Source: Candidatus Krumholzibacteriia bacterium
GTDB taxonomy: Bacteria > Krumholzibacteriota > Krumholzibacteriia > WVZY01
Direction of reading: 5' to 3'
DNA length: 25,269 nucleotides
NCBI GenBank assembly: GCA_036478295.1
Contig: JAZGDW010000159.1
Coordinates: 1-25,269 of the forward strand
The position numbers were made by a program, and so were the translations under genes. Below, one piece after another: positions 7,005 through 22,211 of the stretch. The notes below the pieces were generated by a model. It searched no databases and was not told the DNA's origin. It saw nothing but the letters and a program-made list of their open reading frames with translations. The first letter of the stretch is position 1. Every line of letters starts with the position of its first letter.

Positions 7005-7046
7005 TTGACAGAACAATAGTTACCCGTCATAATTAACCATGGTGTG
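7005..7046 (+). promoter_or_regulatory. Sigma70 promoter with overlapping putative DtxR/MntR operator
   Basis: TTGACA(7005)-17-CATAAT(7028-7033); TTAACCATGGTGTG starts at 7033, 11/14 match to the perfect palindrome at 20156; extra GGTTAA half-site at 7064-7069. Confidence 0.75.
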
Positions 7047-7085
7047 ATTCTTGCTCTTATCCAGGTTAAAGGAGCCGGTAGACCT

Positions 7086-7754
7086 ATGGTAGGCAGTTCC
7101 GTTCAAGATTACGTCAAGGCGATATACAAGTTATCCCTTAAAAACAAAGCAATTACGCCGACGCATCTGGCGGAGCGGCTCGGGGTGTCCTCCCCGGCGG
7201 TGACCAAGATGGTTCGCAAGCTGCAAGACTTGAAGCTGGTCCGCTACGCCCGCTCGAAGGGGCTCAGTCTCACTCCTTCGGGAGAGAAGGTCGCCCTCGA
7301 GGTCATCCGTCACCATCGGTTGTTGGAGCTCTACCTCACTGAGGCCCTCGGCTACAGCTGGGAGGAAGTGCACGACGAGGCGGAAAAACTCGAGCACGTC
7401 ATCTCCGAGCATTTCGAAGAAAAGATAGAAAAACTCCTCGGCTACCCGACTCATGACCCCCACGGTGCGCCCATCCCGACCAGAGACGGGGACGTGGAAG
7501 CGAGTGAAATTATCAAGCTTTCCCGTCTCGAACCCGGGCAGCGGGCGGTGATCCGGCAGGTGAGCGACAACGACTCGGACATGCTGTCCTATCTCGGTAG
7601 TCTTGGCATGTACCCGGGAACCCGGGTCGAGATGGTTGCAAAGGAACCGTACGGCGGGTCACTACGGATAAAGGTGTCGGGCAAGAATCATTCGATTGGC
7701 AGCGAATTGGCCGAAAAGGTTTTTATTTCGCTGGCGAACGAGGTGGAGAATTAG
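7086..7754 (+). CDS. mntR: DtxR/MntR-family metal-dependent repressor with C-terminal FeoA/SH3-like domain
   Basis: AAGGAG before ATG 7086; QDYVKAIY, wHTH LAERLGVSSPAVTKMVRKL, RHHRLLELYL, EAEKLEH, PTHDPHGAPIP, YLGSLGMYPG. Confidence 0.9.
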   Translation: MVGSSVQDYVKAIYKLSLKNKAITPTHLAERLGVSSPAVTKMVRKLQDLKLVRYARSKGLSLTPSGEKVALEVIRHHRLLELYLTEALGYSWEEVHDEAEKLEHVISEHFEEKIEKLLGYPTHDPHGAPIPTRDGDVEASEIIKLSRLEPGQRAVIRQVSDNDSDMLSYLGSLGMYPGTRVEMVAKEPYGGSLRIKVSGKNHSIGSELAEKVFISLANEVEN

Positions 7755-7762
7755 GAAAGAAA

Positions 7763-8824
7763 ATGTCTGACAACGAAAACAAAAAAGAAGGAAGAATTTC
7801 CCGTCGTGGTTTTCTGCTGGGAGCCGGCGGCACGTTCGCCGGTCTGTTCATGGGTGCCAGACAGGCCGGTGCGGACCGGGCGCAGGGCGCACGTGGTCAC
7901 GGCGGCCATCCGAGGACCCACGTCATGCCGGCGGTGGTCGGCGAGTGCACGTCCGGTACCCTGGACCCCCAAGGTTTCCTGACCCATTTTCACTACGGAG
8001 ACAAGCGAACCCCGCTTGGTAACGGCAGGGTGCTCCGCGAATACGAGATACACGCCGTGGACAAGGAGATCGAAATTGCCCCGGGGTTGTTCTTTCCCGC
8101 CTGGGCCTACGGCTCCCCCAACGCGCCGGGTGGCCTGACCGGGCACGTACCCGGACCGACCCTCCGCGCCCGCGAGGGAGACCGTATCAAGATTCGATTC
8201 ATCAATGAGGGCTCTCATCCCCACACCATTCACTTTCATGGTTTCCATTCGGCCGAGATGGACGGGGCCTTGCCGGCCGACTACGTGTATCCCGGTGGCG
8301 AGTTCATATACGAATTCGACGCGGCGCCGTTCGGTCTTCACCTTTACCACTGCCATTCGGTACCGCTGAAGCGGCACATCCACAAGGGACTCTACGGGGT
8401 CTTTATCGTGGATCCTCCAAAGCCGCGCCCGCCGGCGCGCGAACTGGTCATGGTAATGAACGGTTTCGACACCAACTTTGACGGTGACAACGAAATCTAC
8501 GCGGTAAACAGCGTCGCCCATCACCACATGCGGAGTCTCATCAAGGTGACACGGGGCGAGCTGCTCCGTATTTACCTGGTCAACGTCACCGAGTTCGACC
8601 CGATCAACTCGTTTCACATACACGCGAACTTCTTTCACGAGTACCGGACCGGAACCAAACTGACTCCGGATCATTTCACCGATACCGTCATGTTGTGCCA
8701 GGGCGAACGCTCGATACTGGAGATGCGCCTCAGGAAACCCGGGAAATATATGTTTCACGCCCACCAGAGCGAATTCGCCGAGCTGGGCTGGATGGGTCTC
8801 TTCGACGTAACGGAGCCCGCATGA
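7763..8824 (+). CDS. Tat-exported two-domain multicopper oxidase (T1 site in domain 1)
   Basis: SRRGFL Tat motif; HTIHFHG and YHCH..H...L in domain 1; NSFHIH and MFHAH (no Cys) in domain 2. Confidence 0.88.
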   Translation: MSDNENKKEGRISRRGFLLGAGGTFAGLFMGARQAGADRAQGARGHGGHPRTHVMPAVVGECTSGTLDPQGFLTHFHYGDKRTPLGNGRVLREYEIHAVDKEIEIAPGLFFPAWAYGSPNAPGGLTGHVPGPTLRAREGDRIKIRFINEGSHPHTIHFHGFHSAEMDGALPADYVYPGGEFIYEFDAAPFGLHLYHCHSVPLKRHIHKGLYGVFIVDPPKPRPPARELVMVMNGFDTNFDGDNEIYAVNSVAHHHMRSLIKVTRGELLRIYLVNVTEFDPINSFHIHANFFHEYRTGTKLTPDHFTDTVMLCQGERSILEMRLRKPGKYMFHAHQSEFAELGWMGLFDVTEPA

Positions 8825-10017
8825 GTACGGAACAAAGCACACAGTTGAAAGAGCGTGGGGGAGCGAAGCTGGTCGTGCTGGCCATCCTGCCGCTGCTCGT
8901 GCTGGGCCTGATCGCGTTCGGCATCATCCGTTACTCGGGCCGGATGTCGCTGATGGAGGTCCCGGACGTCGAGGAGTTGTCGATACAATGGACGACCCTG
9001 GAGCCGGGCCTGATCCGGCTGGACGTAGTGAACGACGGACCCGATCCCGTGACCATCGCCCAGGTCATGGTGGACGAGGCGTACTGGCAGTTCGAGATCG
9101 TGCCCGCCGGTGGTACATTGGCGCCCCGCCAGAAGGGGGTCATCACCCTGCCGTATCCCTGGGTGGAGGGCGAAACCCACGAGGTTGTGCTGGTGTCGCG
9201 AAACGGGGTGACCTTTGATACGGAGATCGCCGTGGCGCTGGAGAGTCCCAAACCATCTCTGGGATCGCTTCGCTTCTTCGTTTTGCTGGGTATCATCATC
9301 GGTGTCGTTCCGGTCGGTCTGGGGATCATGTGGTTTCCCGTGGTACGGCACCTGTCCGAGCGCTGGGTGCGTTTTCTCCTGGCGTTTACCGTGGGGCTCT
9401 TGCTTTTTCTCGGTCTGGATACGGTTGAAGAGGGTCTCGAGATAGCAGAGAGGCTACCGGGATTTTACCAGGGCAACGCGCTTCTGGCCGGGGTGGCGAT
9501 CTTGATATTTCTTGGTTTGATAGGACTGGGCCGCATGGGCCCGTCGGGGTCGGGGCCATCCACCGGAATGATGCTCGCCTTCATGATCGCGCTCGGAATC
9601 GGTCTGCACAACGTGGGTGAAGGACTCGCGGTCGGCTCGGCGTACGTTCTCGGTGAAGTGGCGGTTGGAACGACGCTGGTACTGGGTTTCACCCTGCACA
9701 ACATTACCGAGGGTCTGGCCATCATCGTTCCGCTGGCCCGGAGGGGTCTCCGCATCTGGCACCTGGTCGGGCTGGGTGCGCTGGCCGGTATCCCGACCAT
9801 CGCCGGGACCCTGATCGGGGGCTTTACCTACTCGACCTTGTGGGCGCTGGTCTTCTTTGCCTTCGCGGCGGGTGCGATTTTCCAGGTGGTCTACGTTATC
9901 GCAAGAAGCCGCGACATCCGCTCCGCCAGCGGTGAGGTGGCGCTTCCGGAGAATTTCCTCGGGCTGGCTCTGGGGCTGGCTGTCATGTATGCCACCGGGC
10001 TGCTGGTCGTGGCCTAG
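8821..10017 (+). CDS. ZIP-family metal transporter with N-terminal TM helix and soluble beta-rich extracytoplasmic domain
   Basis: ATGA overlap with the oxidase; IGLHNVGEG and TLHNITEG ZIP motifs; multiple TM segments. Confidence 0.88.
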   Translation: MSTEQSTQLKERGGAKLVVLAILPLLVLGLIAFGIIRYSGRMSLMEVPDVEELSIQWTTLEPGLIRLDVVNDGPDPVTIAQVMVDEAYWQFEIVPAGGTLAPRQKGVITLPYPWVEGETHEVVLVSRNGVTFDTEIAVALESPKPSLGSLRFFVLLGIIIGVVPVGLGIMWFPVVRHLSERWVRFLLAFTVGLLLFLGLDTVEEGLEIAERLPGFYQGNALLAGVAILIFLGLIGLGRMGPSGSGPSTGMMLAFMIALGIGLHNVGEGLAVGSAYVLGEVAVGTTLVLGFTLHNITEGLAIIVPLARRGLRIWHLVGLGALAGIPTIAGTLIGGFTYSTLWALVFFAFAAGAIFQVVYVIARSRDIRSASGEVALPENFLGLALGLAVMYATGLLVVA

Positions 10018-10029
10018 AGAGGGACAGAA

Positions 10030-10449
10030 ATGAGTATTCGCATCAAACAGTGGTTGATAGCAGTCGTTATAACGGTCGGCGCCATGGGGATCTCTGTTGC
10101 CCGGGGTGGCGACTCAAAGGGCGGTGCCGCCGGCGATCCGGTGCGCACCATCGTACTGACGGCGAAGGACATGAAATTCAACGTCACCAACCCCACCATC
10201 GGTCTCGAACCCGGGGAATGGATCCGCATTGTCATACGCAACGAAGACCCGGGGATGAAACACGACCTGACCATTCCCGAGTTGGGACTGCGCAGTGCCG
10301 TCATCGAAACCGGCGAAACAACGGTACTGAGCTTCCGCGTGCCCAAGGACGTTTTCCTCACCTATCTCTGTTCTTTCCATCCCGTTTCGATGAAGGGTGT
10401 CTTCAACGTCGATGGCGGTTCCGCCGCAGGCGAGCTGGCACAAGAGTAA
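10030..10449 (+). CDS. Secreted cupredoxin (type 1 blue-copper) domain protein
   Basis: Signal peptide; MKHDL His and YLCSFHPVSMKG (C-x2-H-x3-M) ligand loop. Confidence 0.85.
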   Translation: MSIRIKQWLIAVVITVGAMGISVARGGDSKGGAAGDPVRTIVLTAKDMKFNVTNPTIGLEPGEWIRIVIRNEDPGMKHDLTIPELGLRSAVIETGETTVLSFRVPKDVFLTYLCSFHPVSMKGVFNVDGGSAAGELAQE

Positions 10450-10459
10450 TCGCAGGTGA

Positions 10460-10948
10460 TCAATCCGGTGGGCTCATCTTGTTGAACATGTACCGGGCGA
10501 TTTTCCACGCTCCGTCACGCTTCTGTAACACGAAGAGCTCGCGGTTTTCCTCCGGTGCGGTGACGCCTGCCGCGAGGATTGTCACCTGGCCTCGTGAAAT
10601 CGTGCGGGCGAAGGCATAGTTCCCACTCTGGACGATCTCGTCGATAGTGAACTTGATGTCGAGCTTGATGGTGGAGAAGACGTACTCGTAAGCAGCCTTG
10701 ATTTTCTCCGTGCCGACGGCAGATGGCGCGCCGGACGGCATGAACACCCCATCCGGTGCATACAGCTCGAGAACGCCTTTGACGTCCGATTTGTTCAGTG
10801 CCTTCTCATACTGCAAGAGCGTTGCCTCGATGGCCTTTCTCTCCTCTGCGCTTCTGGATTGGTCTCCTTGGGTTTGGGCATTGCTTGCTGCTGCCCAATT
10901 CAACAGGCAGACGCCCAGGACGGCGACTACAACTGTGGTGGTTTTCAT
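10460..10948 (-). CDS. Secreted NTF2-like/SnoaL-like (DUF4440-type) protein
   Basis: Signal peptide; YEKALNKSD..LYAPDGVFMP..NRELFVLQKRDGAWKIARYMFN. Confidence 0.8.
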   Translation of the reverse strand: MKTTTVVVAVLGVCLLNWAAASNAQTQGDQSRSAEERKAIEATLLQYEKALNKSDVKGVLELYAPDGVFMPSGAPSAVGTEKIKAAYEYVFSTIKLDIKFTIDEIVQSGNYAFARTISRGQVTILAAGVTAPEENRELFVLQKRDGAWKIARYMFNKMSPPD

Positions 10949-11041
10949 AATCGGTATCCTTTCAACTTGTAATCACCACCAGCTTGCCGCCCGCGGTGGT
11001 GTCCTCTCCATTGCACGATGGACCCCGACGTTGAGTTTCAG

Positions 11042-11494
11042 CTAGTTCCGTCTCTTTGCGAGCGCCTCATCCACTGACAGGTGGCTGGGGCCGCGCAAGA
11101 AAAGCGCGAGCAAACCTGCGATGTACAGCAGGCTCACTTCGTAACCGGGCATGCCGAAAACCGGTCCCGCATCGCTCATGCCGGTGATGTGGATGAAGCT
11201 AAAACCGTTCGGCAGATGAACGGTGAACATCGCAACCAGCATGTTGATGATCAGCAGCGCCGATGCGATGGACCCGAACGCGCCAACGATCAGCGCAATG
11301 CCGCCCAGCAACTCAACGGCACCGACGGCCCAGGCCATAAATCCCGCAGCGGGCACTCCGATGTTCTGCAGCATGCCCAAGAACATCTCGTGTCCGCCAG
11401 CGCTGAACAACTTCGGAAAACCGTGGTAGACGAATCCAAATCCTATAATCAGGCGCAGTGGTAACGGTGCCCATTTGCTCCATTCCTTTGTCAT
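11042..11494 (-). CDS. DoxX-family membrane protein
   Basis: AGGAGG RBS; LRLIIGFGFVYHGFPKL, ELLGGIAL, VH..NGF, GYE, GPSHLSVD. Confidence 0.88.
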   Translation of the reverse strand: MTKEWSKWAPLPLRLIIGFGFVYHGFPKLFSAGGHEMFLGMLQNIGVPAAGFMAWAVGAVELLGGIALIVGAFGSIASALLIINMLVAMFTVHLPNGFSFIHITGMSDAGPVFGMPGYEVSLLYIAGLLALFLRGPSHLSVDEALAKRRN

Positions 11495-11860
11495 CACAAA
11501 CCTCCTGTATAGGCCCGTGCCCTCAGGCACGCGTGTGTTGTGATCGCGTGGCGATCACTCTACCGAGCTCGTGTTAGTTTTTGTCTGCCGCAACCCGCGT
11601 GCTGAAGAAGTAGGTGGCGATAACTGATCGTTGTTTAGTCTGTTAGATGTCGGACGCTGGGAGCTAGCTGGTGGAACGGTCAGGTATAGGCTTTTGTAGC
11701 ACAGACGCCGGCTGTCGTCAAGACACTGCTTTACGCTTAATGATTTGTTTCACAAAGTGCAGAGATAATTGGCAGGAAGCTTTTCGCGTGGCCAAGAGCC
11801 AGTCTTCTCCAAGACAGGAGCGCTTTCGCTCAGACGATTTCAACAGGGCTAACTGTCACG

Positions 11861-12415
11861 TCATTGATCTGGCATCGCGCGGCGAAGCGCCCTTTCAAAT
11901 TCACTATACCCGGCTGTGTATCCTTCGGACTCGCACCAGTGACGAATGATTTCGAGGTCTACGCTTCGATTCTGTGCCCTGGCGACAGCGACCGCCTGCT
12001 CGAGAGATCCGCGATCGCTCCAGAATAGAAAGCCAGCGAGTCGATCGCGGCATGAATCCGTCGGGTTTATGATGTGGAGTAACTGGTCCTTCTCCCGCAG
12101 CGTTTCCCATTCCTTGATCAACTCGCCACCCACCGCCAGCGGTCCTTGAGGGAACTCGAGCAGGAGCGTGCTCGCTCCGTGTTCGTAGTGGTCTTGTACC
12201 AGACGGTAACCGAGCGATTCCAGGATTGCATTGGCGTCGGCACCCTCGGCACGAAACTCAACGATGAAGTCGAGGTCCCGTGACTGACAGGCATCGGGAG
12301 CGTATACGGTTGCCGCGCTTCCGCCGGTCAAGACGGCGACGACTCCGGTCCGGTCCAGGGCGGTGCAGACCGCAAAGGCGACATCCTTCAAAGTGCTCGC
12401 ACGAGAGATTTTCAC
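11861..12415 (-). CDS. Putative nucleotidyltransferase-fold protein (AbiEii/DUF6036-like), candidate toxin
   Basis: VLTGGSAA....SRDLDF matches the GGxA...SxDxD motif of Pol-beta-like NTases; GTG start overlaps the upstream TGA. Confidence 0.65.
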   Translation of the reverse strand: MKISRASTLKDVAFAVCTALDRTGVVAVLTGGSAATVYAPDACQSRDLDFIVEFRAEGADANAILESLGYRLVQDHYEHGASTLLLEFPQGPLAVGGELIKEWETLREKDQLLHIINPTDSCRDRLAGFLFWSDRGSLEQAVAVARAQNRSVDLEIIRHWCESEGYTAGYSEFERALRRAMPDQ

Positions 12416-12747
12416 ATCGGTTTTCCAGCGCGCCGGGGTCTCGAGCGTCGCCGGGCAGCGGCCGTGCCCAGGGCGGGCTCGGCCTCGGCGAGCCGAAGGA
12501 GCAGGTTCCTCAGGTCCTTGTGAGCGAAATACCTCGGATCGAGAGACACCCGGCGCGAGCTGCCGGAAAGACGGGTGGCCAGGATACCTTCCCGGTCAAG
12601 CGCCCGCACGATGGTCTGGATGGAGTAGAGTCGGGCGTCCAGGAGCCGCGCCAGCTCCGTCGGATAGGACTCACCCAGAAGCGCAATCAGGATAAGCACT
12701 TCTGTTCTTCGGCGGCTGCCGAACAACTTCTGTTCACGCGATTCCAT
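12412..12747 (-). CDS. Winged-helix (ArsR-like) DNA-binding protein, candidate antitoxin/autorepressor
   Basis: LFGSRRRTEVL..YPTELARLLDARLYSIQTIVRALDREGIL wHTH; basic C-terminus; start placed at 12747 from promoter geometry (alternative 12753). Confidence 0.78.
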   Translation of the reverse strand: MESREQKLFGSRRRTEVLILIALLGESYPTELARLLDARLYSIQTIVRALDREGILATRLSGSSRRVSLDPRYFAHKDLRNLLLRLAEAEPALGTAAARRRSRPRRAGKPM

Positions 12748-12753
12748 ATCCAT

Positions 12754-12818
12754 AACATACCAGTAAATATTGGTCTGTCAACCAATAATTATTGGTTGAC
12801 CAACCAAGTATTATTGGT
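12754..12818 (-). promoter_or_regulatory. Promoter overlaid by three 16-bp palindromic operators at 22-bp period
   Basis: Minus strand TTGACA(12781-12776)-16-TATGTT(12759-12754); ACCAGTAAATATTGGT (12759), ACCAATAATTATTGGT (12781), ACCAAGTATTATTGGT (12803). Confidence 0.8.
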
Positions 12819-13002
12819 GGTTTGGCGTCACGGCCAGAGGGAGTCGAGGGGAGGGGGTACGCTTTCGTGCAGATAGTCTATTGTCTTCGTCGGTGTGAGC
12901 GGGGTGTGGGAATGCCCACTCGGGCTCGATTCCAGTCGGCTTCACCGATCGATTCGCGTTTTCTCATTCTTATACTGACAAGAACTGATACGCTCACGCA
13001 GT

Positions 13003-15087
13003 ATGCCGCAACGCTCATCGGCAGATCGTTTCTACCTCTATACTCTCCTCGTCCTGTCGGCCATCGGTCTTTGCCTCCAGGTGGCTTCTCTGGGACCGCT
13101 CCGCAATAGCTTTTGGGGATTCCACCTGCAAGCGTTTCTTCATCCCGCCGTCGCCGTTGTCGGTTGGGTCTTGCTAGTTCTGGCGGCTGTGGTGTTGGTA
13201 CGGCCAGCTCGGGCAGTGGAAGCCCCAGGGGCCGAAGCGAACGTGCTCGCGCGGCACCCGTTGGTTTCGGCTGTTGGTCTGGCGCTGCTGTGCGTAGGTG
13301 TGTTCTGGGTGCTCCGGTCTCAACAGCTTTTCCTCGGCGACGCCTTGCCCCTCAAGATAGACCTGGCCAGAGGAAAGGACTTCCATCCTCGCCAGCCCTT
13401 GACCATGTGGCTTCAGCAGGCGCTCTACAGTCGTCTGGGGTTTCTGTTCCGGAGTGAAGGAGTGGGGAACGAAGACGTTGCCCAACGCACCGTCGCGCTC
13501 GGCAGCGTCATATCCGGTTTCTTCTTCGTACTGGTTGCCGCGGCCCTCGGACGCCTGTTCGTGCGCAAGACCTCACACGGACCCGCGGTATCGTGGCTCG
13601 TGACCCTGGTTCTGCTGTCGCAGGGTTTTGTTCAGTTGTTTTTCGGGTATGTGGAGAACTACACCTTTTACGCGCTGGCGATCACCGTTTATTTGTGGCT
13701 GTCGCTTCGCTTCATGGAAGGATTATCACCTCTCCTCATGCCCGGCGTCGTGCTCATCCTTGCGTTGACACTACACCTGTCCGCGGCTGTTCTCCTTCCA
13801 TCATTTCTGGTCCTTAGCACGTGGGCACTCGTGGTACGCAGGACGCGCCGCGCTGCACTCCGCGACCTCGTCGTTTGCGCGGTTGTTCTTTCTGCAGTGC
13901 ACCTGGTGTTCCTGGGGCTTCGCGAGTACAATCTGCTGTCCACACTTTTTGATGTATCCGGACGGGCGCTGGGAGGACGGGGGGTAGGCATTCCCAATTA
14001 CATGTTCTCCTCGATGCATTTTCGCGACTTCTTTAACGAACAATTCCTGATCGGTCCGTTGGGCCTCTTAGCGTTCCTTCCCGCCGCCCTGATCGCAATC
14101 AGGCGGACGGATCGCGGAAGCTTGCCCACGGTGTTCTTTCTCACAACAGGCCTGACCTACTTCGCAGCGAGCTGGATGGCCGGCGATTCCAACCTGGGAT
14201 ACGCCCGCAATTGGGATCTGCTCGCACCGGCGGGCGTATGCTTCACAGCGGGGGCCTTGTATTTTCTCATAAAGCACGTGTCGGAGCCGGTGAGCGCGGC
14301 GCGGTTGCTCAAGTTCGGACTCGTGTTCTCCATCGTGAGTCTGGTGCCGTGGGTGTGGGTCAATCACAACGAAGATCTGTCGTTCGAGCGCCTGAAGGCC
14401 CTGCCGCTGGGATTGGGCAGGACGGAAGTGGTGGTGGCGAACTGGTACCTCGAGCACGACCAGCGGGGAGAGGCAGCCACATGGTTTCGACAAGCCCTGA
14501 AGGTCAATCCCAACAATGGTCCGGCGTATGCGTTTCTGGGCATGCTTTCGACAGAGCAGGGGCAGTTCGAAGAGGCGCGCAAGCTCTACGAACGGGCGAT
14601 CGCTTTGCGGCCGGACAAGCCAGAGTACCGCCAGAACTACGTATTAACGCTCATGCAGCTCAAGCGCACCGAGGAGGCTTTGCCGCACCTCGACTGGTTG
14701 GTGAGAAAGGTGCCCGACAACGTCCTGTACTGGCGCCTCTCGGCGGATGCTCTGACACAGCTGGGGCGCGCAGAAGAACTGGTTCAGGTCTACGAGCGTC
14801 TGCTGTGGTTTGCCGAAAAGAGGCTGGAGTCAGATCCCGGAAACGAAGACGCAAGTATCGAGGCGGGGATTTTGCTCGTGCACCTCGAACGCGAAGAGGA
14901 GGCGCTGGAAAGATTCCGTCGGGCGCTGGACGCCAACCCCAATTCGTTGGCGGGGCTGTTCAACATGGGGTCAACCCTGGTCCATATGGGACGGAACACC
15001 CAGGCCCAGGCTGCACTGCAACGATTTGTCCGGCTTTACCCCGATCATCCAAACGCCGCCTGGGCGAGACAATATATCGAGCCGTGA
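13003..15087 (+). CDS. Polytopic membrane protein (possibly GT-C glycosyltransferase-like) with C-terminal TPR repeats
   Basis: About a dozen hydrophobic segments with FFGYVENY and RNWDL loops; TPR motifs (FRQALKVNPNN, YERAIALRPD, FRRALDANPN). Confidence 0.75.
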   Translation: MPQRSSADRFYLYTLLVLSAIGLCLQVASLGPLRNSFWGFHLQAFLHPAVAVVGWVLLVLAAVVLVRPARAVEAPGAEANVLARHPLVSAVGLALLCVGVFWVLRSQQLFLGDALPLKIDLARGKDFHPRQPLTMWLQQALYSRLGFLFRSEGVGNEDVAQRTVALGSVISGFFFVLVAAALGRLFVRKTSHGPAVSWLVTLVLLSQGFVQLFFGYVENYTFYALAITVYLWLSLRFMEGLSPLLMPGVVLILALTLHLSAAVLLPSFLVLSTWALVVRRTRRAALRDLVVCAVVLSAVHLVFLGLREYNLLSTLFDVSGRALGGRGVGIPNYMFSSMHFRDFFNEQFLIGPLGLLAFLPAALIAIRRTDRGSLPTVFFLTTGLTYFAASWMAGDSNLGYARNWDLLAPAGVCFTAGALYFLIKHVSEPVSAARLLKFGLVFSIVSLVPWVWVNHNEDLSFERLKALPLGLGRTEVVVANWYLEHDQRGEAATWFRQALKVNPNNGPAYAFLGMLSTEQGQFEEARKLYERAIALRPDKPEYRQNYVLTLMQLKRTEEALPHLDWLVRKVPDNVLYWRLSADALTQLGRAEELVQVYERLLWFAEKRLESDPGNEDASIEAGILLVHLEREEEALERFRRALDANPNSLAGLFNMGSTLVHMGRNTQAQAALQRFVRLYPDHPNAAWARQYIEP

Positions 15088-15113
15088 CTTGATTTCGAGG
15101 CTGTCGTCCAGGT

Positions 15114-15206
15114 TGAACCGCCCCGGGATTGCCGGAGGCTGCATTTCGTGAGAGGATGGAGTCATGAGCAGACGAAACAGGTTTTCACCGGAAGTAAGAG
15201 AGCGCG
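15114..15206 (+). mobile_element. IS3-family (IS629/IS6110-like) left-end remnant
   Basis: TGAACCGCCCCGGGATTGCCGGAGGCT resembles IS629/IS6110 terminal IRs; ATG 15164 gives MSRRNRFSPEVRER (cf. OrfA ..RFSPEVRxRA), then similarity stops. Confidence 0.85.
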
Positions 15207-15208
15207 GG

Positions 15209-15274
15209 CGCTATGATTTAGCCCCGCTACGCAAAAACCCGCGGTTCCAGAAGCTGCTGCAAGAGTACGTCTAA
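15209..15274 (+). pseudogene. Orphan C-terminal tail of a TPR-type signalling protein, fused in frame to the IS OrfA stub
   Basis: RYDLAPLRKNPRFQKLLQEYV* resembles the DPxLxPLRxDPRFQxLL terminal motif of kinase/cyclase-TPR proteins. Confidence 0.6.
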
Positions 15275-16347
15275 CCGGCCTCCTTGATCAGTGGAATGAA
15301 CTTGTGGTTGGCGCCGGGGAAGGGGTAGTCGTCGATCTCGTCGACGAGAATCCAGCGAAAATCCGTAGGCCCGCTCAGCCGCACCTCGCCCGCCCGGTAG
15401 CGGCACGAGTAGACGTCGACGCCAATCTTGAAGTGCGAATAAGCGTGGTCGACGTGGGTCAGGTAGTCGGTCACTTCCACGGTCAGGTTGACTTCTTCTT
15501 TTATCTCCCGCGCGCAGGCGTCCTCCGGCCGCTCGCCCCGGCGCACCTTGCCGCCGGGAAACTCCCACAGTCCTCCGAGAAGTCCGTCCTCCGGCCGGCG
15601 CGTGATGAGGATGCGGTCGTCCTTGCGGATGACGCCGATGGCAATGTGGTATTTCGGTACCGGCTTGCGCGGCGCCCGCACCGGAAACTCATGCTGCCGC
15701 CCCGCCGCGAAGGCACCGCAAAACCCCGACACCGGGCACGCGTCGCATAGCGGCTGTGCGGGCCGGCAGACGACGGCCCCGAGCTCCATCATGGCCTGGT
15801 TGTAATCGCCGGGGTGCTTGCGGTCGAGGAGCTTGCCCGCGTGTTCGCGAAAGAGCTTCTGTGCGGCGGACGCATTGACGGGAGAGTCGACCTCGAACAA
15901 ACGGGCCAGCACTCGTTTGACGTTGCCGTCGAGTACGGCGTGTGGCTCGTCGAACGCAATGCTCATGACAGCGGCGGCGATGTAGTCGCCGACACCGGGG
16001 AGTTTTCGGAAGGCTTCGTACTCACTCGGAATGCGGCCGCCGGCTTCGTCCGCCAGCCGGTGCGCGGCGCGGTGGAGGTTGCGGGCCCGCGCGTAGTAGC
16101 CCATCTTCTCCCAGCTCTTCAGGACCTCCTGCAGGTCGGCGCGGGCCAATGTGCAGACGTCCGGGTAGGCGGCGACAAACCGCTGGTAGTAGGGAAGAAC
16201 GGTCTGGACCTGCGTTTGCTGCAGCATGACCTCCGACACCCATACCCGGTACGGGTCCCGGGTGCCTCTCCACGGGAGGTCTCGCTTCTCTCGTTCGTAC
16301 CACAGAAGGAGTCTTTTTCGAAAAGCCGGCAAGCGCTCGCGGTTCAT
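15271..16347 (-). CDS. mutY: A/G-specific adenine DNA glycosylase with C-terminal Nudix domain
   Basis: WVSEVMLQQT, GYYARARNL, HhH LPGVGDYIA, DGNVKRVLAR, C-x6-C-x2-C-x5-C, LWEFPGG. Confidence 0.95.
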   Translation of the reverse strand: MNRERLPAFRKRLLLWYEREKRDLPWRGTRDPYRVWVSEVMLQQTQVQTVLPYYQRFVAAYPDVCTLARADLQEVLKSWEKMGYYARARNLHRAAHRLADEAGGRIPSEYEAFRKLPGVGDYIAAAVMSIAFDEPHAVLDGNVKRVLARLFEVDSPVNASAAQKLFREHAGKLLDRKHPGDYNQAMMELGAVVCRPAQPLCDACPVSGFCGAFAAGRQHEFPVRAPRKPVPKYHIAIGVIRKDDRILITRRPEDGLLGGLWEFPGGKVRRGERPEDACAREIKEEVNLTVEVTDYLTHVDHAYSHFKIGVDVYSCRYRAGEVRLSGPTDFRWILVDEIDDYPFPGANHKFIPLIKEAG

Positions 16348-16438
16348 CAATTGGCGACCTCACCCCGGGTATTCGTTTACGGACCGCCATCCGGGCAGAT
16401 TGCGGTCGAGTATAGTATGGCAGGTTGCAGGGAAACGA

Positions 16439-17488
16439 TTAGACGATTTCCAGCATACGCTCGACTGCACGCCGGGCGCGTTTGCTGATGTCCTCGGGCA
16501 CTTCGATCACGTGCTGGATTTTCTCGAGGGCGTCCCGGGTCTGCTCGAGCGTGATCTGGCCCATGTGCGGGCAGCGTACGCTGCAAAGCCGCAGCATCTC
16601 TTTCTCGGGGTTTTCGGCGACGATGTTGTCGCCCATGCTGCATTCGGTGAGCAGCAGGTACTGGGAAGCCTTGCTTTCCTGGACGTACTTGATGATCGCG
16701 TTCGTGCTGCCCGAGAAATCCGACGCCAGAACGACTTCCGGGCTGCACTCCGGGTGGGCGAGGACGAGAACGTCGGGGAACTGCTTGCGGACATTCACAA
16801 TGTCTTCGACGGTAAACTTCTCGTGCACCTCACACTTGCCGTGCCAACCCACCATGGTGTACGTGAGCCCGTCGCTGTTCTTCTTGGCGGCGCGCGGGTC
16901 CTTGACGGGAAAGATAATTTCCCGCCCGGTCTCTCTCGCCACGTTCTTTGCGAGGTATTCATCTGGGAGGAAGATTACCTGCTTGCTGTCCAGTGACTGG
17001 ATAACCTTGGCCGCGTTGCTCGATGTGCAGCAGATGTCCGTTTCCGCCTTGACGTCGGCATAGCAGTTGACGTAGGTGACGACCGGCACGCCGGGGTACT
17101 GCTCTTTGAGTGCCCGCACGTCGTCGGCGGTGATGCTGGCCGCGAGCGAACAGCCCGCCTCCAGCGACGGAATGAGGACCGTCTTCTCGGGGCTCAAGAT
17201 CTTCGCCGTCTCCGCCATGAAGCGCACGCCGCAAAAGACGATGATGTCCTTGTCCGTGTCGGCCGCGCGGCGGCTCAGGTCGAGGGAGTCCCCCTTGAAA
17301 TCGGGCACCGAGTGAAAGAGCGCCGCCTCCATGTAGTTGTGGCCGAGGATGACGGCGTTACGCTCCTCTTTGAGGCGGTTTATCTCGTAGGCGAGCTCGG
17401 CCTTGTAGCGTAGCTCGAACTCCGGCACTACGCCCTTGAGCTTCTTGTGCATCATTTCATAGGTGGATTCGAGCGTGGCCTGGGCCAT
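16439..17488 (-). CDS. nadA: Quinolinate synthase
   Basis: HNY, GDSL, FCGVRFMAE, AGCSLA, YVN, CTSSNA, CEVH, HPEC, GST, TE, CPHM; GAAGGA RBS before ATG 17488. Confidence 0.95.
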   Translation of the reverse strand: MAQATLESTYEMMHKKLKGVVPEFELRYKAELAYEINRLKEERNAVILGHNYMEAALFHSVPDFKGDSLDLSRRAADTDKDIIVFCGVRFMAETAKILSPEKTVLIPSLEAGCSLAASITADDVRALKEQYPGVPVVTYVNCYADVKAETDICCTSSNAAKVIQSLDSKQVIFLPDEYLAKNVARETGREIIFPVKDPRAAKKNSDGLTYTMVGWHGKCEVHEKFTVEDIVNVRKQFPDVLVLAHPECSPEVVLASDFSGSTNAIIKYVQESKASQYLLLTECSMGDNIVAENPEKEMLRLCSVRCPHMGQITLEQTRDALEKIQHVIEVPEDISKRARRAVERMLEIV

Positions 17489-17601
17489 GACTGTTCCTTC
17501 TGTCCGGGGGATTCTGGTTGGATTATGACTGCTCCGGTCCAATTGGCAAGCGAAACCTGGAGCTGCCGGCCGGGCCGGACCGGCTGCCCGTCTCACGTGA
17601 A

Positions 17602-17630
17602 AACTTACGCAAACGCGGGTGAAAAGTCAA
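17602..17630 (-). promoter_or_regulatory. Sigma70-type promoter for nadA
   Basis: Minus strand TTGACT-17-TAAGTT. Confidence 0.6.
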
Positions 17631-17664
17631 CCGTGGGGGTTCGGGGGAGAACGCACAATGGGAG

Positions 17665-17707
17665 ATGCCGCTAGCGTCGGGCGCGTGCCGCCAGCCGCCA
17701 GCGGCAT
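17665..17707 (-). terminator. Hairpin downstream of the ECF/DUF4252 operon
   Basis: ATGCCGCTAGCG...CGCCAGCGGCAT, 12-bp stem with one G-U on the minus strand; poor U-tract. Confidence 0.4.
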
Positions 17708-17751
17708 ATCAACCGCGAGACGTGGTGAGATCTGTGGCGCGCGACGCCCGG

Positions 17752-18312
17752 TCAAGTGTCCACGTGAAACTCGATCCCGTCATCGTTCGTTATGTCCACG
17801 TGGTTCTGGACGACCTTCGCCAAGAGTCGATCGATCCGGCCTTCGACCCGCACCATGATCAACTCGTCACGGCTCAGGACCACGACATATATTTCCCTCA
17901 CCACGTCGTTCTTTTCTTTGTACAACACCCACACCCGCTCGCTATGTTCGTTTATCTTCGCCGCCAGCTCCCAGTCGCGTTTCTCGAGCAGCTTCTGCAG
18001 CTGGATGGGAACCGCCACTTTTGACTGTCGGGGAAGGTCGTCCACCTTGTACACGGCGAGCTTCACGCGGCGGATCTCTTTGAGGTACGTGCTGGCCTCA
18101 CGGGCGTCGGGAACAAACCGGGTGACGCTCCTCGCAAGTCCCAGCGACAAGGGGCCGAGCGTGATGGCGAATTCCTTCTTGAAGTGAACGCCGGGCAGCT
18201 GTCCCTGGAGATCGCGCCGGACGCGATCGAGCTCCGGCGCCCACAGGCATCCGGAGCTCATGCTGACGAGGATGATGACGCCGACGATCCATGTCATTCG
18301 ATTTTTGTTCAT
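17752..18312 (-). CDS. DUF4252-family lipoprotein
   Basis: GGAGG RBS; lipobox-like SSGC; LKEIRRVKLAVY, WELAAKINE..ERVWVL, LIMVRVEGRI parallel the neighbouring paralog. Confidence 0.7.
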   Translation of the reverse strand: MNKNRMTWIVGVIILVSMSSGCLWAPELDRVRRDLQGQLPGVHFKKEFAITLGPLSLGLARSVTRFVPDAREASTYLKEIRRVKLAVYKVDDLPRQSKVAVPIQLQKLLEKRDWELAAKINEHSERVWVLYKEKNDVVREIYVVVLSRDELIMVRVEGRIDRLLAKVVQNHVDITNDDGIEFHVDT

Positions 18313-18339
18313 CGTACGCCTCCAATCAAATCGCCGGGG

Positions 18340-18966
18340 TCATCGATCGTCACGGTCACGTTCGCGCTTGCTGCGGCGTTTGTCACGGTACTTCGATTTC
18401 CAGTCGACGTCATCGAGTGCATCGATGTGCAGCCCGTGTCCAAGGCGGCCGATTTGCGTCGGGTCGATGGTGCCGACGATGTTGACGAATACCGCTTCAT
18501 CATCGTCGTCGACCACCATGACGACCAGGCCGTCGATGTTATTGCCCTTGCCGGGCAGTATGTAGATGTGCACGTGCTCATCCCGTTCGCGCACGCGGAC
18601 AGCCATTTCCCAACCCATTTTCTCGAGTTCCTTGGACAACCTGTCGCTCTTCTCGATGAGGTCCCGTCCGAGGTCGCCCACGAGATCGAAGACGTGGACC
18701 CGGACCAGCTTGAGTCCCGCCAACATCTCGGCCACCTCGGGGTCGTCGTGCCGCACCGCTTCGACGGCCATCGACAGCAATGGACCCTTTAGAAAGACTT
18801 CGACGGTCGATTCCAGATCGCCGAATATATTCATGCCTTCGAAATCAACGTAGCCGGGCAGTTTCTTGTAATCGTCCTTCGGGGCCGCCGCGGCGTCCGG
18901 CGCGACGAGCGCCAGCATGGCCAGCGACAGGACCGCGCAGGTGATTACACCTCTGAACGTTTTCAT
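18340..18966 (-). CDS. DUF4252-family secreted protein
   Basis: AGGAGG RBS; signal peptide; PGYVDF, VEVFLKGPLL, GWEMAVRVRE, GLVVM, FVNIVGTID. Confidence 0.8.
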   Translation of the reverse strand: MKTFRGVITCAVLSLAMLALVAPDAAAAPKDDYKKLPGYVDFEGMNIFGDLESTVEVFLKGPLLSMAVEAVRHDDPEVAEMLAGLKLVRVHVFDLVGDLGRDLIEKSDRLSKELEKMGWEMAVRVRERDEHVHIYILPGKGNNIDGLVVMVVDDDDEAVFVNIVGTIDPTQIGRLGHGLHIDALDDVDWKSKYRDKRRSKRERDRDDR

Positions 18967-19568
18967 ACGGAACCTCCTCCTGGTGGGGTCTTGGGTGATT
19001 GTTGGTTTCTTGGTGACTGACGGTTCGCCGGTGACTCCGTCTCGAAGGCGGCATCGACGGCGCGCCGCACGGGTTGCAGCATCCCGGTATCGAACGCCTG
19101 GGTGGCGGCGGTCATGGCCGATTGCCGGCTGATGTCCCCGAGGTATGCGATCGTCCATATGAGCTCTGCTTCGGCTTCCGCGACCTCCGCCGGGGTGATC
19201 TCCTGCGGCCGCGTCCGGTCAAGGACCCAGAGCGCCGATACGACGACAAGCAGGACGAACACACCCGCCAGCGCCGGCCGAAGGACGCCGAACCAGTCGG
19301 CGAACCGGTTACGCCCGGCTGCGCGCGGTCGCTCCTCGAGCCCGGCCATGACGCCGTCGACCACCCTGTCCGGGCAGTACAGTTCCGGTAGCGCGTGGAG
19401 CTCTTGCAGAACTCTCTTCGCGCGGTCGAGCTCGCGGCGGCACTCCGCGCACACATCGACATGACTGTGGAATGTCGTTAGCGCGTCCGCGCCAAGCTCC
19501 TCGTCGAGAAAGCTCTCGATTCTCTCGCGTACCCACAGGCAATTTGGATTTTTTTCAAAACGATTCAT
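18963..19568 (-). CDS. Zinc-binding (zf-HC2/ZAS) membrane-anchored anti-sigma factor
   Basis: C..VRERIESFLDEEL..HVDVCAEC (HxxxCxxC); single TM; overlaps the sigma gene. Confidence 0.88.
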   Translation of the reverse strand: MNRFEKNPNCLWVRERIESFLDEELGADALTTFHSHVDVCAECRRELDRAKRVLQELHALPELYCPDRVVDGVMAGLEERPRAAGRNRFADWFGVLRPALAGVFVLLVVVSALWVLDRTRPQEITPAEVAEAEAELIWTIAYLGDISRQSAMTAATQAFDTGMLQPVRRAVDAAFETESPANRQSPRNQQSPKTPPGGGSV

Positions 19569-20079
19569 GATCGAGTGTCCCGGTTAGTTTTTCGCGCAGC
19601 ATTCTCCTGCCCCTGTGAAGATAGGATTTCACCGTGTTCAGGGGCAGCTCCAGGTTCTTGCTGATTTCTTCGTATTTCATATCCTGTATTTCCCGCAAGA
19701 TGACGATCGACCGATACGGCTCCTGCAACGATGCCAGCGCGCCCTGGATGGTCTCGCGAAGCTCTGATGCTTCCACCGTGGCGTCAGGACCAGGTTCAAT
19801 CGATATGCCTTGTAACATCTCTTCTCCGTCTCCGGTGGCGACTACCCGCGTCCGGTAGGCCCGGCGCCTGCGCACCGCGTCGATACAGGCGTTACGGGTT
19901 ACCCGGTTGATCCACGCCGGGAGGGTGGCTTCGTTCAGTTCCTCCCAGTTTTTCCACATGCGCACCAGCACTTCCTGTGTGACGTCTTCGGCCTCTTCCC
20001 GGTTGCGCAGGCTGTAGTAAGCGAAGGTGTAGACGCGATGCCTGTGCTGATCGGCCACACTCCTGAATTTTTTTGTCAT
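19555..20079 (-). CDS. ECF RNA polymerase sigma factor
   Basis: EAEDVTQEV, WINRVTRNACID, ILREIQDMKYEEIS..LPLNTVKSYLHRGR. Confidence 0.92.
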   Translation of the reverse strand: MTKKFRSVADQHRHRVYTFAYYSLRNREEAEDVTQEVLVRMWKNWEELNEATLPAWINRVTRNACIDAVRRRRAYRTRVVATGDGEEMLQGISIEPGPDATVEASELRETIQGALASLQEPYRSIVILREIQDMKYEEISKNLELPLNTVKSYLHRGRRMLREKLTGTLDHESF

Positions 20080-20090
20080 GACTAACCGTA

Positions 20091-20119
20091 AAGACGCATG
20101 TAGGGCGCAAAAGGTTACA
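20091..20119 (-). promoter_or_regulatory. Putative autoregulatory ECF promoter
   Basis: Minus strand TGTAACC-16-CGTCTT, 11 nt before ATG 20079; fits AAC(-35)/CGT(-10) ECF pattern. Confidence 0.65.
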
Positions 20120-20127
20120 CAAGCCGG

Positions 20128-20169
20128 TTGACAAATTGAGAGGTCTGGGCTATCGTTAACCATGGTTAA
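20128..20169 (+). promoter_or_regulatory. Sigma70 promoter with perfect palindromic operator TTAACCATGGTTAA
   Basis: TTGACA(20128)-17-TATCGT(20151-20156); palindrome 20156-20169. Confidence 0.78.
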
Positions 20170-20179
20170 TTAATTTTTA

Positions 20180-20209
20180 TAAGGTGGGTAAATTAAGGTG
20201 GGTAAATTA
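20180..20209 (+). repeat. Exact 14-bp tandem duplication TAAGGTGGGTAAAT x2
   Basis: 20180-20193 and 20194-20207, plus TA. Confidence 0.9.
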
Positions 20210-20229: not shown

Positions 20230-20367
20230 GTGATCCGGTCCGCAGTACAAGATTACGAGACCGTCGAGGCGCTGGTTGAGCCGATGTCGGGCCCGACGAT
20301 CGATCCCCAGGGGAAACCCATTCCCCGGGGGCAGGACGATTTCCACGAAGAAGAGGAGGAGACATGA
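20230..20367 (+). pseudogene. 45-aa internally deleted DtxR/MntR-like ORF (remnant or mini-protein)
   Basis: GGAGGT RBS, GTG start; MIRSAVQDY-ETVEALVEPMSGPTIDPQGKPIPRGQDDFHEEEEET*; ends match MVGSSVQDY and PTHDPHGAPIP of the 7086 regulator; TGA overlaps ATG 20364. Confidence 0.75.
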
Positions 20368-21188
20368 AACGCTACCGGTCCGTCGGTTCTCTTATAACGT
20401 GTGTGTTGGTGATGCTCGCTGTGAGCGATGCGCGTTCGCAAACGGACGAGCCGCTCATAACCGATCGCCCCGACATCACCGAATCCAGTACAGTCGTAGG
20501 CGCGGGAAGATTTCAGGTCGAGACATCCGTGCAGCTGCAGAGATTCGAGGAGGGACCCTTCGAAGCGACGATCTGGTCGACGCCGACACTGCTTCGCATC
20601 GGTGTCACCGGTAAGTTGGAGTTGCGTCTGGCAACTGATGCATTTTCTACCGTTAACACAGAGGTCGCGGGTGCCGCCGATGACCGTTCGTCGGGTTACT
20701 CCCCGATCGCTCTCGGGCTCAAGTATCACCTGCTGGAAGCCGGGGCTGCGGCGAGACCGTCCGTCGGCGTGCTGGCGCAGGTGGAGGTGCCCTCCGGTTC
20801 CGGTGCATTCAGGACAGACGATGCGGCAGGCGCTCTCTTGCTGGCGGCGGACTGGGACCTGACAAACTCGCTGTCGCTCGGGCTGAACAGCGGGGTGGAT
20901 ATATTCGAGGTGCCGGGTGGCGACACAAAAACAGGCGGCCTTTTCTCGGCGGCCTTGGGTTATGGTCTCACAGAGGAAACGGGGAGCTTCCTGGAAATAG
21001 CGATCGCAGGGATGGGCCTTAGCTCGGACATGAGGAGTGTCATCCTCGATGGCGGGATCACCCATCTCTTCGGTCCGGGCGCTCAGATAGACGTCGCCGT
21101 CGGCGGCGGCATCACGGAGCAGACCGAGCCCGACTTGTTTGTTACGGTTGGCTTCAGTCTCAGGGCCTCTTACCGGCCGAAAGGATAG
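20364..21188 (+). CDS. Outer-membrane beta-barrel 'transporter' (MetA-pathway of phenol degradation-like family)
   Basis: Signal peptide; ITDRPDITESSTVVGAGRFQVE family motif; alternating beta strands ending FVTVGFSLR. Confidence 0.78.
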   Translation: MKRYRSVGSLITCVLVMLAVSDARSQTDEPLITDRPDITESSTVVGAGRFQVETSVQLQRFEEGPFEATIWSTPTLLRIGVTGKLELRLATDAFSTVNTEVAGAADDRSSGYSPIALGLKYHLLEAGAAARPSVGVLAQVEVPSGSGAFRTDDAAGALLLAADWDLTNSLSLGLNSGVDIFEVPGGDTKTGGLFSAALGYGLTEETGSFLEIAIAGMGLSSDMRSVILDGGITHLFGPGAQIDVAVGGGITEQTEPDLFVTVGFSLRASYRPKG

Positions 21189-21193
21189 TTACG

Positions 21194-21937
21194 TTGTCAC
21201 AGACTTGTAAGCGCTCCGCCGCTTCCCGGCTCACCCGTGGAATCCTCACGGTCCTCATTGCCGCCGGGCTTTTTTTGTACGCCCCGTCACAGAGCGCAGG
21301 GGAAGAGGGCGACGTCGTATTGAATGCGGCATTCGTCTGCGTGGATAAGGTATTCAATTCGGAGCTGATGGCGCCGTACGATATCTTGCAGCATACGCTC
21401 TATCGCGATCCCAAGAACTACGTGCGCTGCTTCATCGTCACTCCCGACGGCAAACCCTTCGTCTCCTTCGAGGGCATACGCATTACGCCGGATTATTCGT
21501 TCGAGAATTGTCCCGCCGTGGACATCCTGGTGGTCCCGAGCACCGGCACCAGCATGAAGGAAGATCTGGAGAACAAGGTTTTGATCTCGTGGCTGGGCCG
21601 AACCGTTCGAACTGCGACGCACGTCATTTCGGTTTGCGACGGTGCCTTTCCGCTGGCGGCCACCGGTGCGCTTGACGGCCGCGCGGCGACGACCTTTCCA
21701 TCCGACCGCGACAAGTTGCAAGAGATGTTCCCCGAGGTCGACGTGCGCCGTGACGTGAATTTCGTCGTCGACGGCAAGTTCATCACGTCGGTGGGCGGAG
21801 CGCTTAGCTACGAGCCGGCGCTATACCTCGTTGAGAAGTTATACTCGAAAGAAAACGCCCGCCGCGTGGCGAAAGGGTTGGTGCTCGACTGGGAACTGGA
21901 CAAGATACCGCACATGATAGTCCGCGCGGATGAATGA
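21194..21937 (+). CDS. DJ-1/PfpI-family protein with N-terminal signal peptide
   Basis: DILVVP, SVCDGAFPLAATGALDGRAATT nucleophile elbow, VVDGKFITSVG; TTG start after AAGGA. Confidence 0.85.
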   Translation: MSQTCKRSAASRLTRGILTVLIAAGLFLYAPSQSAGEEGDVVLNAAFVCVDKVFNSELMAPYDILQHTLYRDPKNYVRCFIVTPDGKPFVSFEGIRITPDYSFENCPAVDILVVPSTGTSMKEDLENKVLISWLGRTVRTATHVISVCDGAFPLAATGALDGRAATTFPSDRDKLQEMFPEVDVRRDVNFVVDGKFITSVGGALSYEPALYLVEKLYSKENARRVAKGLVLDWELDKIPHMIVRADE

Positions 21938-22130: not shown

Positions 22131-22159
22131 TAGACACCCGCAAAGGCCCCCCGTATAAT
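22131..22159 (+). promoter_or_regulatory. Sigma70 promoter for the kinase gene
   Basis: TAGACA-17-TATAAT. Confidence 0.65.
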
Positions 22160-22211
22160 CGGGCATAGCATACCGCGACCCAGAGCGTGGGTTCCGGAAG
22201 GCGCTTTGCCC

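Follow-up and report, generated by a model that had tools for sequence, protein, structure and literature searches.

Two transcription units on one contig of a Candidatus Krumholzibacteriia bacterium start from promoters that carry the same type of 14-bp palindrome in the same place. One encodes an MntR-type repressor followed by a multicopper oxidase, a ZIP-family transporter and a cupredoxin; the other encodes an outer-membrane beta-barrel. The question raised by this locus is why two such units should share an operator, and whether the sharing gives the barrel a role in metal uptake, as the first-pass annotation had proposed. The window, by which we mean the whole stretch of 25,269 nucleotides (nt), belongs to a metagenome bin (G000; 316 contigs, 3.52 Mb, 91% complete). 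We consider it probable that the window holds an MntR operon together with the scar of a paralogous mntR-mntABCD-barrel operon, that the surviving repressor acts on both, and that manganese (Mn) takes a route from the barrel to the ZIP transporter. The features concerned are as follows (aa, amino acids; ORF, open reading frame).

Promoter 1 (7005..7033, + strand): sigma-70-type, TTGACA at 7005-7010, 17 nt, CATAAT at 7028-7033; drives mntR-oxidase-ZIP-cupredoxin.
Operator box 1 (7033..7046, no strand): TTAACCnnGGTTAA type, 11/14 to the perfect 14-mer (3 mismatches).
MntR-type DtxR-family repressor (7086..7754, + strand): 222 aa; helix-turn-helix, metal/dimer and FeoA domains; Asp8/Glu100; Lys41.
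Promoter 2 (20128..20156, + strand): TTGACA at 20128-20133, 17 nt, TATCGT at 20151-20156; fronts the deleted mntR-mntABCD operon.
Operator box 2 (20156..20169, no strand): perfect palindrome, the sole perfect copy in the genome.
Tandem duplication of 14 bp in the leader (20180..20207, + strand): contains a weak second box near 20193-20206.
Deletion-scar ORF of 45 aa (20230..20367, + strand): 9 first mntR codons joined in frame to the last ~35 mntD codons; joint at 20256/20257.
Outer-membrane beta-barrel (20364..21188, + strand): PF13557/COG4313, FapF/Pput2725 fold; plug motif DRPDITE; candidate Mn(II) channel.

A deletion scar between the second operator and the barrel

The promoters and boxes were reproduced as first described, in coordinates and in mismatches: TTGACA-17-(-10) with a box that begins on the last T of the -10 element, at 7033 (11/14) and at 20156 (perfect). 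The ORF behind box 2, whose stop codon overlaps the barrel start (ATGA), had been annotated as a mini-DtxR in its own right. Comparison with three genomes of the same class (G001, which is of the same genus, G007 and G009; the class set holds 201 genomes including G000) showed that it is instead a chimera. G001 shares the flank, with mutY, nadA, two DUF4252 genes, an anti-sigma gene and a sigma factor gene of the extracytoplasmic function (ECF) type in the same order as in the window, and next in line it encodes mntR-mntA-mntB-mntC-mntD-barrel-DJ-1 (binding protein, ATPase, two permeases), the barrel being 76-78% identical to that of the window. The window matches the leader and the first 9 codons of this mntR, then jumps in frame to mntD codon 401. 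Relative to G001, 5117 bp are missing (G001 coordinates), and nothing in between matches. Microhomology at the joint, as read from G001, amounts to at most about 2 bp and explains nothing. A search for relatives of the scar peptide at 24-79 aa returned none except itself. The ORF has a weak match to Fe_dep_repr_C (E value 0.017, 15.6 bits against a cut-off of 27). In G001 (L043:5024-7611) both permeases, mntC and mntD, have C-terminal DtxR-like domains, and it is because of these that the scar scores weakly as a DtxR.

As the 45-aa ORF runs from mntR codon 9 straight into the mntD tail, site 2 is the promoter at which a lost mntR paralog regulated itself. With both sites being promoters of mntR paralogs, the identical register reflects homology and not, as had been suggested, the recruitment of an unrelated locus.

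The same locus in G009 bears a scar of its own. An mntR remnant extends to about codon 75, is frameshifted and is joined to a shorter mntD tail; the breakpoints differ from those of the window, and a 1-mismatch box is kept ahead of the remnant. This scar is independent of that in the window. Behind the G009 scar and box (C293, L046:3822-7700) are encoded a di-haem DHOR, a Rieske protein, a different, Pfam-less predicted porin and DJ-1, of which the DHOR-Rieske-porin genes make up another outer-membrane cassette at this position. Box 2 of the window is unchanged in the other sequencing runs that cover site 2; over site 1, four runs give patchy cover, with one short piece across the box. Since box 2 is perfect, unchanged across the covering runs and also kept in G009 before a frameshifted remnant, the comparison suggests that it is still used by the surviving 7086 repressor.

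Three other accounts of site 2 have to be weighed against this one. A mis-assembly might be suspected in a bin of this fragmentation and completeness, but the idea is largely refuted and we give it almost no credence: contigs of two runs from different studies (X3 and X4, with 3 and 2 other letters) bridge the joint, the shorter arm covering 64-99 letters, there are no loose ends, and mntA and the mntC/mntD permease domains, hence an mntABCD system, were not found elsewhere in a search of the G000 contigs. The in-frame joint, the retained ATGA overlap and an acidic tail with one His would suit a working mini-DtxR or a leader peptide that senses metal; this is very improbable, since the ORF is without the helix-turn-helix and metal-site helices, has no relatives and maps to two G001 genes, and the G009 scar is frameshifted with other breakpoints. 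Finally, promoter, box, barrel and DJ-1 may be a leftover drifting without a metal role since the deletion. Homology alone accounts for the shared register, the deletion is undatable, and the two variants observed in the scar ORF are both amino-acid changes. We regard such drift as quite unlikely in view of the perfect and unchanged box, the intact barrel with 21 of its 33 listed variants silent, and the G009 box retained while the mntR remnant decayed.

Operator type and the recognition helix of the repressor

In the window taken alone the box count is weak and near chance: with up to 3 mismatches there are 2 matches, and 6 of 100 shuffles also reach 2. At genome scale the box is specific. 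A relaxed pattern for the register (TTGAC, 15-19 nt spacer, 5 nt, TTAACC) has 6 matches in G000, both window sites included, and a weight matrix built on 10 sites from other genomes, with both window sites excluded, ranked box 2 1st and box 1 3rd among 51 matches scoring at least 11. The scan of the genome and its relatives bears out the earlier expectation of a conserved operator: 20156 is the only perfect copy in G000, and the box is kept upstream of the mntR orthologs. These orthologs, about 70% identical to the 7086 protein, occur in 3 of the 200 other class genomes (G001, G007 and G009), and their promoters read TTGACA-16/17-(-10) running into TTAACCnnGGTT. The same box in the same register was found in G001, G007 (16 nt spacer), twice in G009, and in the more distant genome G226.

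The 7086 protein matches PF01325, PF02742 and PF04023 above cut-off, and against NCBIfam all named MntR/DtxR equivalogs remain below cut-off (best NF047407, 209.7 bits against 350). By alignment offsets, Asp8 and Glu100 occupy the positions of DtxR Met10 and Cys102. Replacement of these two by Asp/Asn and Glu is given as a Mn-sensing rule (PMC11672702; here and below, PMC numbers stand for the accessible parts of the articles), and the 7086 protein has the Asp/Glu pair of that rule.

We compared two sets of mntR loci. In set 1 (110 loci, 30 from relatives and 80 from a genome-contig collection), all 12 Lys41 proteins have the box, 11 at two or fewer mismatches and the window at 3. Of the 98 non-Lys41 loci, 2 reach two or fewer mismatches and 32 have a perfect TTAG-N6-CTAA, and many of the remainder show no box within 160 nt. 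Set 2, reached through barrels and mntA, comprises 23 loci, one without the recognition helix and 22 scored: the TTAACC box lies at all 6 Lys41 loci (0-2 mismatches, where matches at 2 mismatches are possible by chance in 3.7 kb) and a perfect TTAG box at all 16 others. The box tracks Lys41 in the MntR recognition helix and belongs to one MntR subtype. A quick tree places the Lys41 proteins in four places, with 3 changes needed, and Lys41 mntR genes are followed by mntABCD, NRAMP or oxidase-ZIP.

These comparisons support the prediction of a DtxR/MntR-type operator in the palindrome, one that serves autoregulation and is conserved. Beside the 7086 protein no second MntR of the Lys41 type was found in G000, which makes it likely that the two loci are under common control, and we think it likely that this repressor binds both boxes, at site 2 in trans. 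Its signal is probably Mn rather than Fe or Zn, and is not to be taken as established because the ligand rule also fits a FeoB-linked paralog on contig C256. Of the single DtxR-type regulon proposed earlier, the operator type and the shared control therefore stand, with a scope reduced to two units. No wider regulon emerged, as the remaining exact-type matches in G000, G001, G007 and G009 have no metal gene nearby, and the regulon appears to consist of the two window transcription units only.

Several candidate members were rejected. Matches on C25, C16 and C188 of G000 lie inside or beside unrelated genes, as do extra 1-mismatch boxes in G001, G007 and G009, and a reversed-pattern control yielded as many matches as the box pattern. 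At C79:34490 the match proved to be a tandem site before a TetR-like gene; the surrounding segment (C79:34460-34530) has a TTGACT-17-CATAAT promoter and a tandem repeat over the start of that gene, with a molybdoenzyme cluster beyond, and is a separate autoregulatory operator. Before the C256 dtxR lies a weak TTAACC-like site, which at a score of only 11.7 we do not count as a box.

Beside the 7086 protein, G000 encodes two further DtxR paralogs. The relatives of one have iron-type ligands (Met/Cys); the other precedes FeoB. At C256:8386-11851 (L047), a second DtxR paralog with a TTAG-N6-CTAA-like box precedes a DtxR-FeoA fusion anchored in the membrane and then FeoB; this is a parallel, likely iron, regulon that is conserved across the order.

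Autoregulation by MntR of Mn importers is well established. With the MntR/TroR/ScaR/SloR systems that autoregulate mntABCD (troABCD) or mntH, the window shares the three-domain repressor, the Asp/Glu site and a 14-bp palindrome over the promoter start, and its relatives also share the downstream ABC or NRAMP importer. The window box TTAACCnnGGTTAA tracks Lys41 and differs from TTAG-N6-CTAA and from the 19-bp IdeR box of four CCTAA repeats (PMC8464063). Lys41 aligns, as read by eye, with Gln43 of IdeR, which was found dispensable there (PMC8464063).

The outer-membrane barrel and its gene neighbourhoods

The barrel matches PF13557 with 60 bits against a cut-off of 22. Its predicted model (predicted local distance difference test 86.8) shows a barrel whose first strand is preceded by an N-terminal segment, and the N-terminal DRPD motif is conserved. 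The best Foldseek matches are FapF (5O65; E value 1e-10, template-modelling score about 0.6) and 4RL8 (E value 1e-7). An Atlas look-up with the barrel returned PF13557 and unnamed clusters only, and a single-protein search of the genome-contig collection gave no match. Pput2725 (4RL8), SphA, TcpY and FapF (5O65) share the COG4313-type fold with the window barrel, which has 15% identity to these structures; the roles described for COG4313 are uptake of hydrophobic molecules (PMC4493636) and, for FapF, amyloid secretion, and no metal role is described in the accessible text.

Few outer-membrane Mn routes are known (MnoP, OmpU and MnoT in the review PMC9334652). MnoP of Bradyrhizobium, an outer-membrane protein tied to Mn uptake, provides a working model for the function of the barrel (PMC9334652, PMC6011978), to which it is likened by description; the window barrel is a COG4313/PF13557 protein under an MntR-type box. 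As with MnoP, relatives of the barrel are encoded in, or controlled with, a Mn uptake system, as seen from gene context and boxes in genomes.

A first test of gene neighbourhoods was negative for metal genes, and whole-genome profile searches altered the picture. In the phylum of the window, 8 of 17 barrel matches are Mn-linked, G000 and G001 among them. In a comparison set of 201 Armatimonadota genomes, 27 of 48 are Mn-linked, meaning that mntR, mntA/C/D or NRAMP lies within about 1.5 kb. In the other six of the 8 linked cases from the phylum of the window, the barrel comes first in barrel-mntR-mntABCD (G170, G133, G195, G182 and G131) or in barrel-mntR-NRAMP (G111), with a TTAG box at each of these promoters. 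A strict box stands upstream of 14 of the 27 linked and none of the 21 unlinked Armatimonadota barrels (5 of 1920 shuffled stretches). G226 carries the complete Lys41-mntR-mntABCD-barrel order with a TTAACC box in the same register, so that the G001 arrangement spans two phyla. G204, a genome with a Lys41 MntR, encodes a lone barrel with a TTAACC box upstream (1 mismatch), which would be the same trans situation as that proposed for the window. The plug motif DRPD[FIY]TE, chosen on the same data on which it was scored, is present in 30 genome copies, 27 of them Mn-linked and 2 of the other 3 with a box. Among the 80 metagenome relatives, 77 have Val in place of Thr in the plug, and neither of the 2 that have Thr is linked.

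We lean slightly towards the barrel being an outer-membrane Mn(II) channel, with passage of the metal predicted. The metal-uptake role proposed for it in the first place gains independent genomic support from the linked operons in two phyla. This support comes from comparative genomics and not from the shared box, which is explained by the deletion scar.

The oxidase-ZIP-cupredoxin cassette

Behind mntR, the first unit of the window encodes three further proteins.

Two-domain multicopper oxidase (7763..8824, + strand): Pfam; twin-arginine-like leader, as read from the sequence; close to the two-domain oxidase structures 7RAB and 3GDC, the nearest found.
ZIP-family transporter with an N-terminal extension (8821..10017, + strand): Pfam; in 2 of the 201 class genomes.
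Cupredoxin (10030..10449, + strand): Pfam; also behind ZIP in G009.

The two class genomes with this ZIP are G000 and G009, both with scars. On two other contigs G009 carries mntR-oxidase and oxidase-ZIP-cupredoxin. The binding protein gene mntA was identified in 48 of the 201 class genomes, including G001 and G007, which both keep mntABCD and in which neither the oxidase nor the ZIP gave a match. One of the 201 Armatimonadota genomes (G207, L323) encodes mntR-oxidase-ZIP and has no mntA match. The extended ZIP itself is widespread (7452 matches at an E value of 1e-30 or better among 7999 scored), and mntR also stands beside oxidase-ZIP at two actinobacterial loci (L152 and L210). That the oxidase-ZIP-cupredoxin module replaces the deleted ABC importer is a reading we hold as evenly balanced from this distribution. 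As to the oxidase, our guess is that it clears competing periplasmic Fe(II) or Cu(I). An oxidase beside a ZIP permease is also found in ammonia-oxidising archaea, likewise proposed for metal uptake (PMC7785015); the archaeal pair was proposed for copper, whereas the pair described here sits behind an MntR-type box in a genome where mntABCD was deleted.

Evidence against a manganese channel and alternative readings

A number of observations weigh against the Mn reading, in whole or in part. Near 80 metagenome relatives of the barrel and 10 further loci (49 of the 90 hold at least 4 kb), we found no mntR, mntA, oxidase, ZIP, NRAMP or DJ-1 gene, and these 80 relatives are 33-42% identical to the barrel, nearer in sequence than many linked ones. 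A chemoreceptor is encoded directly downstream at 14 of 24 scanned metagenome loci (among L059-L135). In the barrel tree, for which every second metagenome row was used (40 of 80) and P0005 was omitted as the same protein as the G001 row, the window protein falls outside the main Mn-linked group, and the linkage may on that account have arisen more than once; its clade holds the G226 barrel and three unlinked barrels, one beside MgtE. The ABC system also occurs without a good barrel match (G007 and 8 of the 22 Armatimonadota genomes with mntA), and the barrel is optional to it. The mntR tree is compatible with a single origin of Lys41, related genomes and loci do not count as independent cases, and the replacement pattern is drawn from four genomes that are 84-92% complete. 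The Mn ligand rule is not decisive, as the C256 paralog (Asn/Glu) also fits it and yet precedes FeoA-FeoB. Among characterised relatives, Pput2725 was considered an improbable channel for hydrophilic solutes (PMC4493636). As an observation apart, the Val-plug sister group and its methyl-accepting chemoreceptor form a conserved channel-chemoreceptor pair.

The regulon could be as described and the metal another one, with a repressor that senses Fe(II) or Zn(II) and a cassette for iron, zinc or copper. The C256 paralog, which lies before FeoB, has much the same ligands; for the G001 binding protein the top-scoring family is AztC (Zn), then EfaA/MntC (Mn/Fe), all below cut-offs; ZIPs transport several metals (PMC9334652); and there is the copper proposal for the archaeal pair. 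We hold this to be unlikely, because the Asp8/Glu100 pair is one that the Mn rule allows (PMC11672702), the genes behind Lys41 loci encode MntABC-type or NRAMP transporters, and the two other DtxR paralogs of the genome include one of Met/Cys iron type in relatives and one before FeoB. Somewhat doubtful, though to be taken seriously, is the reading in which the barrel is a general pore for small cations or small solutes, or a metal-chelate channel, that Mn operons often recruit and that is not Mn-selective. Other relatives stand beside MgtE, between kdpC and kdpD and beside a Na/Ca exchanger (L285, L307 and L309), hinting at a wider role with inorganic cations, and together with the chemoreceptor neighbours they suit such a pore, as do the conserved polar residues, most of which are common to linked and unlinked groups, and Pput2725, which leaks glycine (PMC4493636). 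Against it, the plug motif marks the linked copies (27/30), with the limit that it was picked on the same data.

Other genes of the window

Two residents flank the scar locus.

ECF sigma factor (19555..20079, - strand): divergent resident neighbour; synteny anchor with G001, G007 and G009.
Exported-type DJ-1/PfpI (21194..21937, + strand): Pfam; 5 nt behind the barrel; resident, likely a co-transcribed passenger.

DJ-1 had been counted as a member of the regulon. In G007 it adjoins the ECF sigma gene, with neither an mnt operon nor a box between them; the operon thus sits between two resident genes, and DJ-1 is likely a passenger. The gene labels first given (DtxR, oxidase, ZIP, cupredoxin, barrel and DJ-1) agree with Pfam.

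Upstream of the ECF sigma gene, a TGTAAC-N16/17-CGTC motif (20119-20092, - strand) is conserved in G001, G007 and G009, and we take it to be the autoregulatory promoter of the operon of ECF sigma, anti-sigma and the DUF4252 pair. The Ser/Thr kinase-TPR gene at 22206-25269 has a G+C content of 48% against about 60% and its own consensus promoter at 22131, and was likely acquired separately. At 11861-12753 (- strand) are a small helix-turn-helix-like gene and a nucleotidyltransferase-like gene with a weak Pfam match, which resemble a toxin-antitoxin pair of the AbiE type. An Rfam search of the window gave no match.

A model for the two units and its significance

Under Mn sufficiency, the Mn(II)-loaded 7086 dimer would sit on both boxes, over the transcription start, and block both promoters; under Mn shortage both promoters would open. 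The barrel would then let Mn(II) into the periplasm, from where the ZIP transporter would import it, aided in some way by the oxidase and the cupredoxin. The scar ORF likely does no more than preserve reading into the barrel.

Two broader statements are put forward jointly and tentatively, at a little less than an even chance: that the DRPD[FIY]TE subfamily of COG4313 is an MntR-controlled Mn(II) channel in Krumholzibacteriota and Armatimonadota, and that oxidase-ZIP-cupredoxin is an alternative Mn importer that has twice displaced MntABCD, with a deletion scar left behind each time. In the accessible open-access literature we found neither a COG4313 barrel described in a Mn operon nor the box nor the replacement; the motif may be described in subscription papers, regulon databases or supplements, which were outside this scope.

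The pairing of Lys41 with TTAACC, as opposed to TTAG, suggests how DtxR paralogs within one cell could hold their regulons apart. The two independent deletions are a natural experiment that points to the function of the extended ZIP and its oxidase partner. If the model is true, COG4313, described for hydrophobic cargo, would gain a Mn-linked subfamily with a recognisable plug motif, and this subfamily would give a testable substrate for many unannotated 'transporter' genes.

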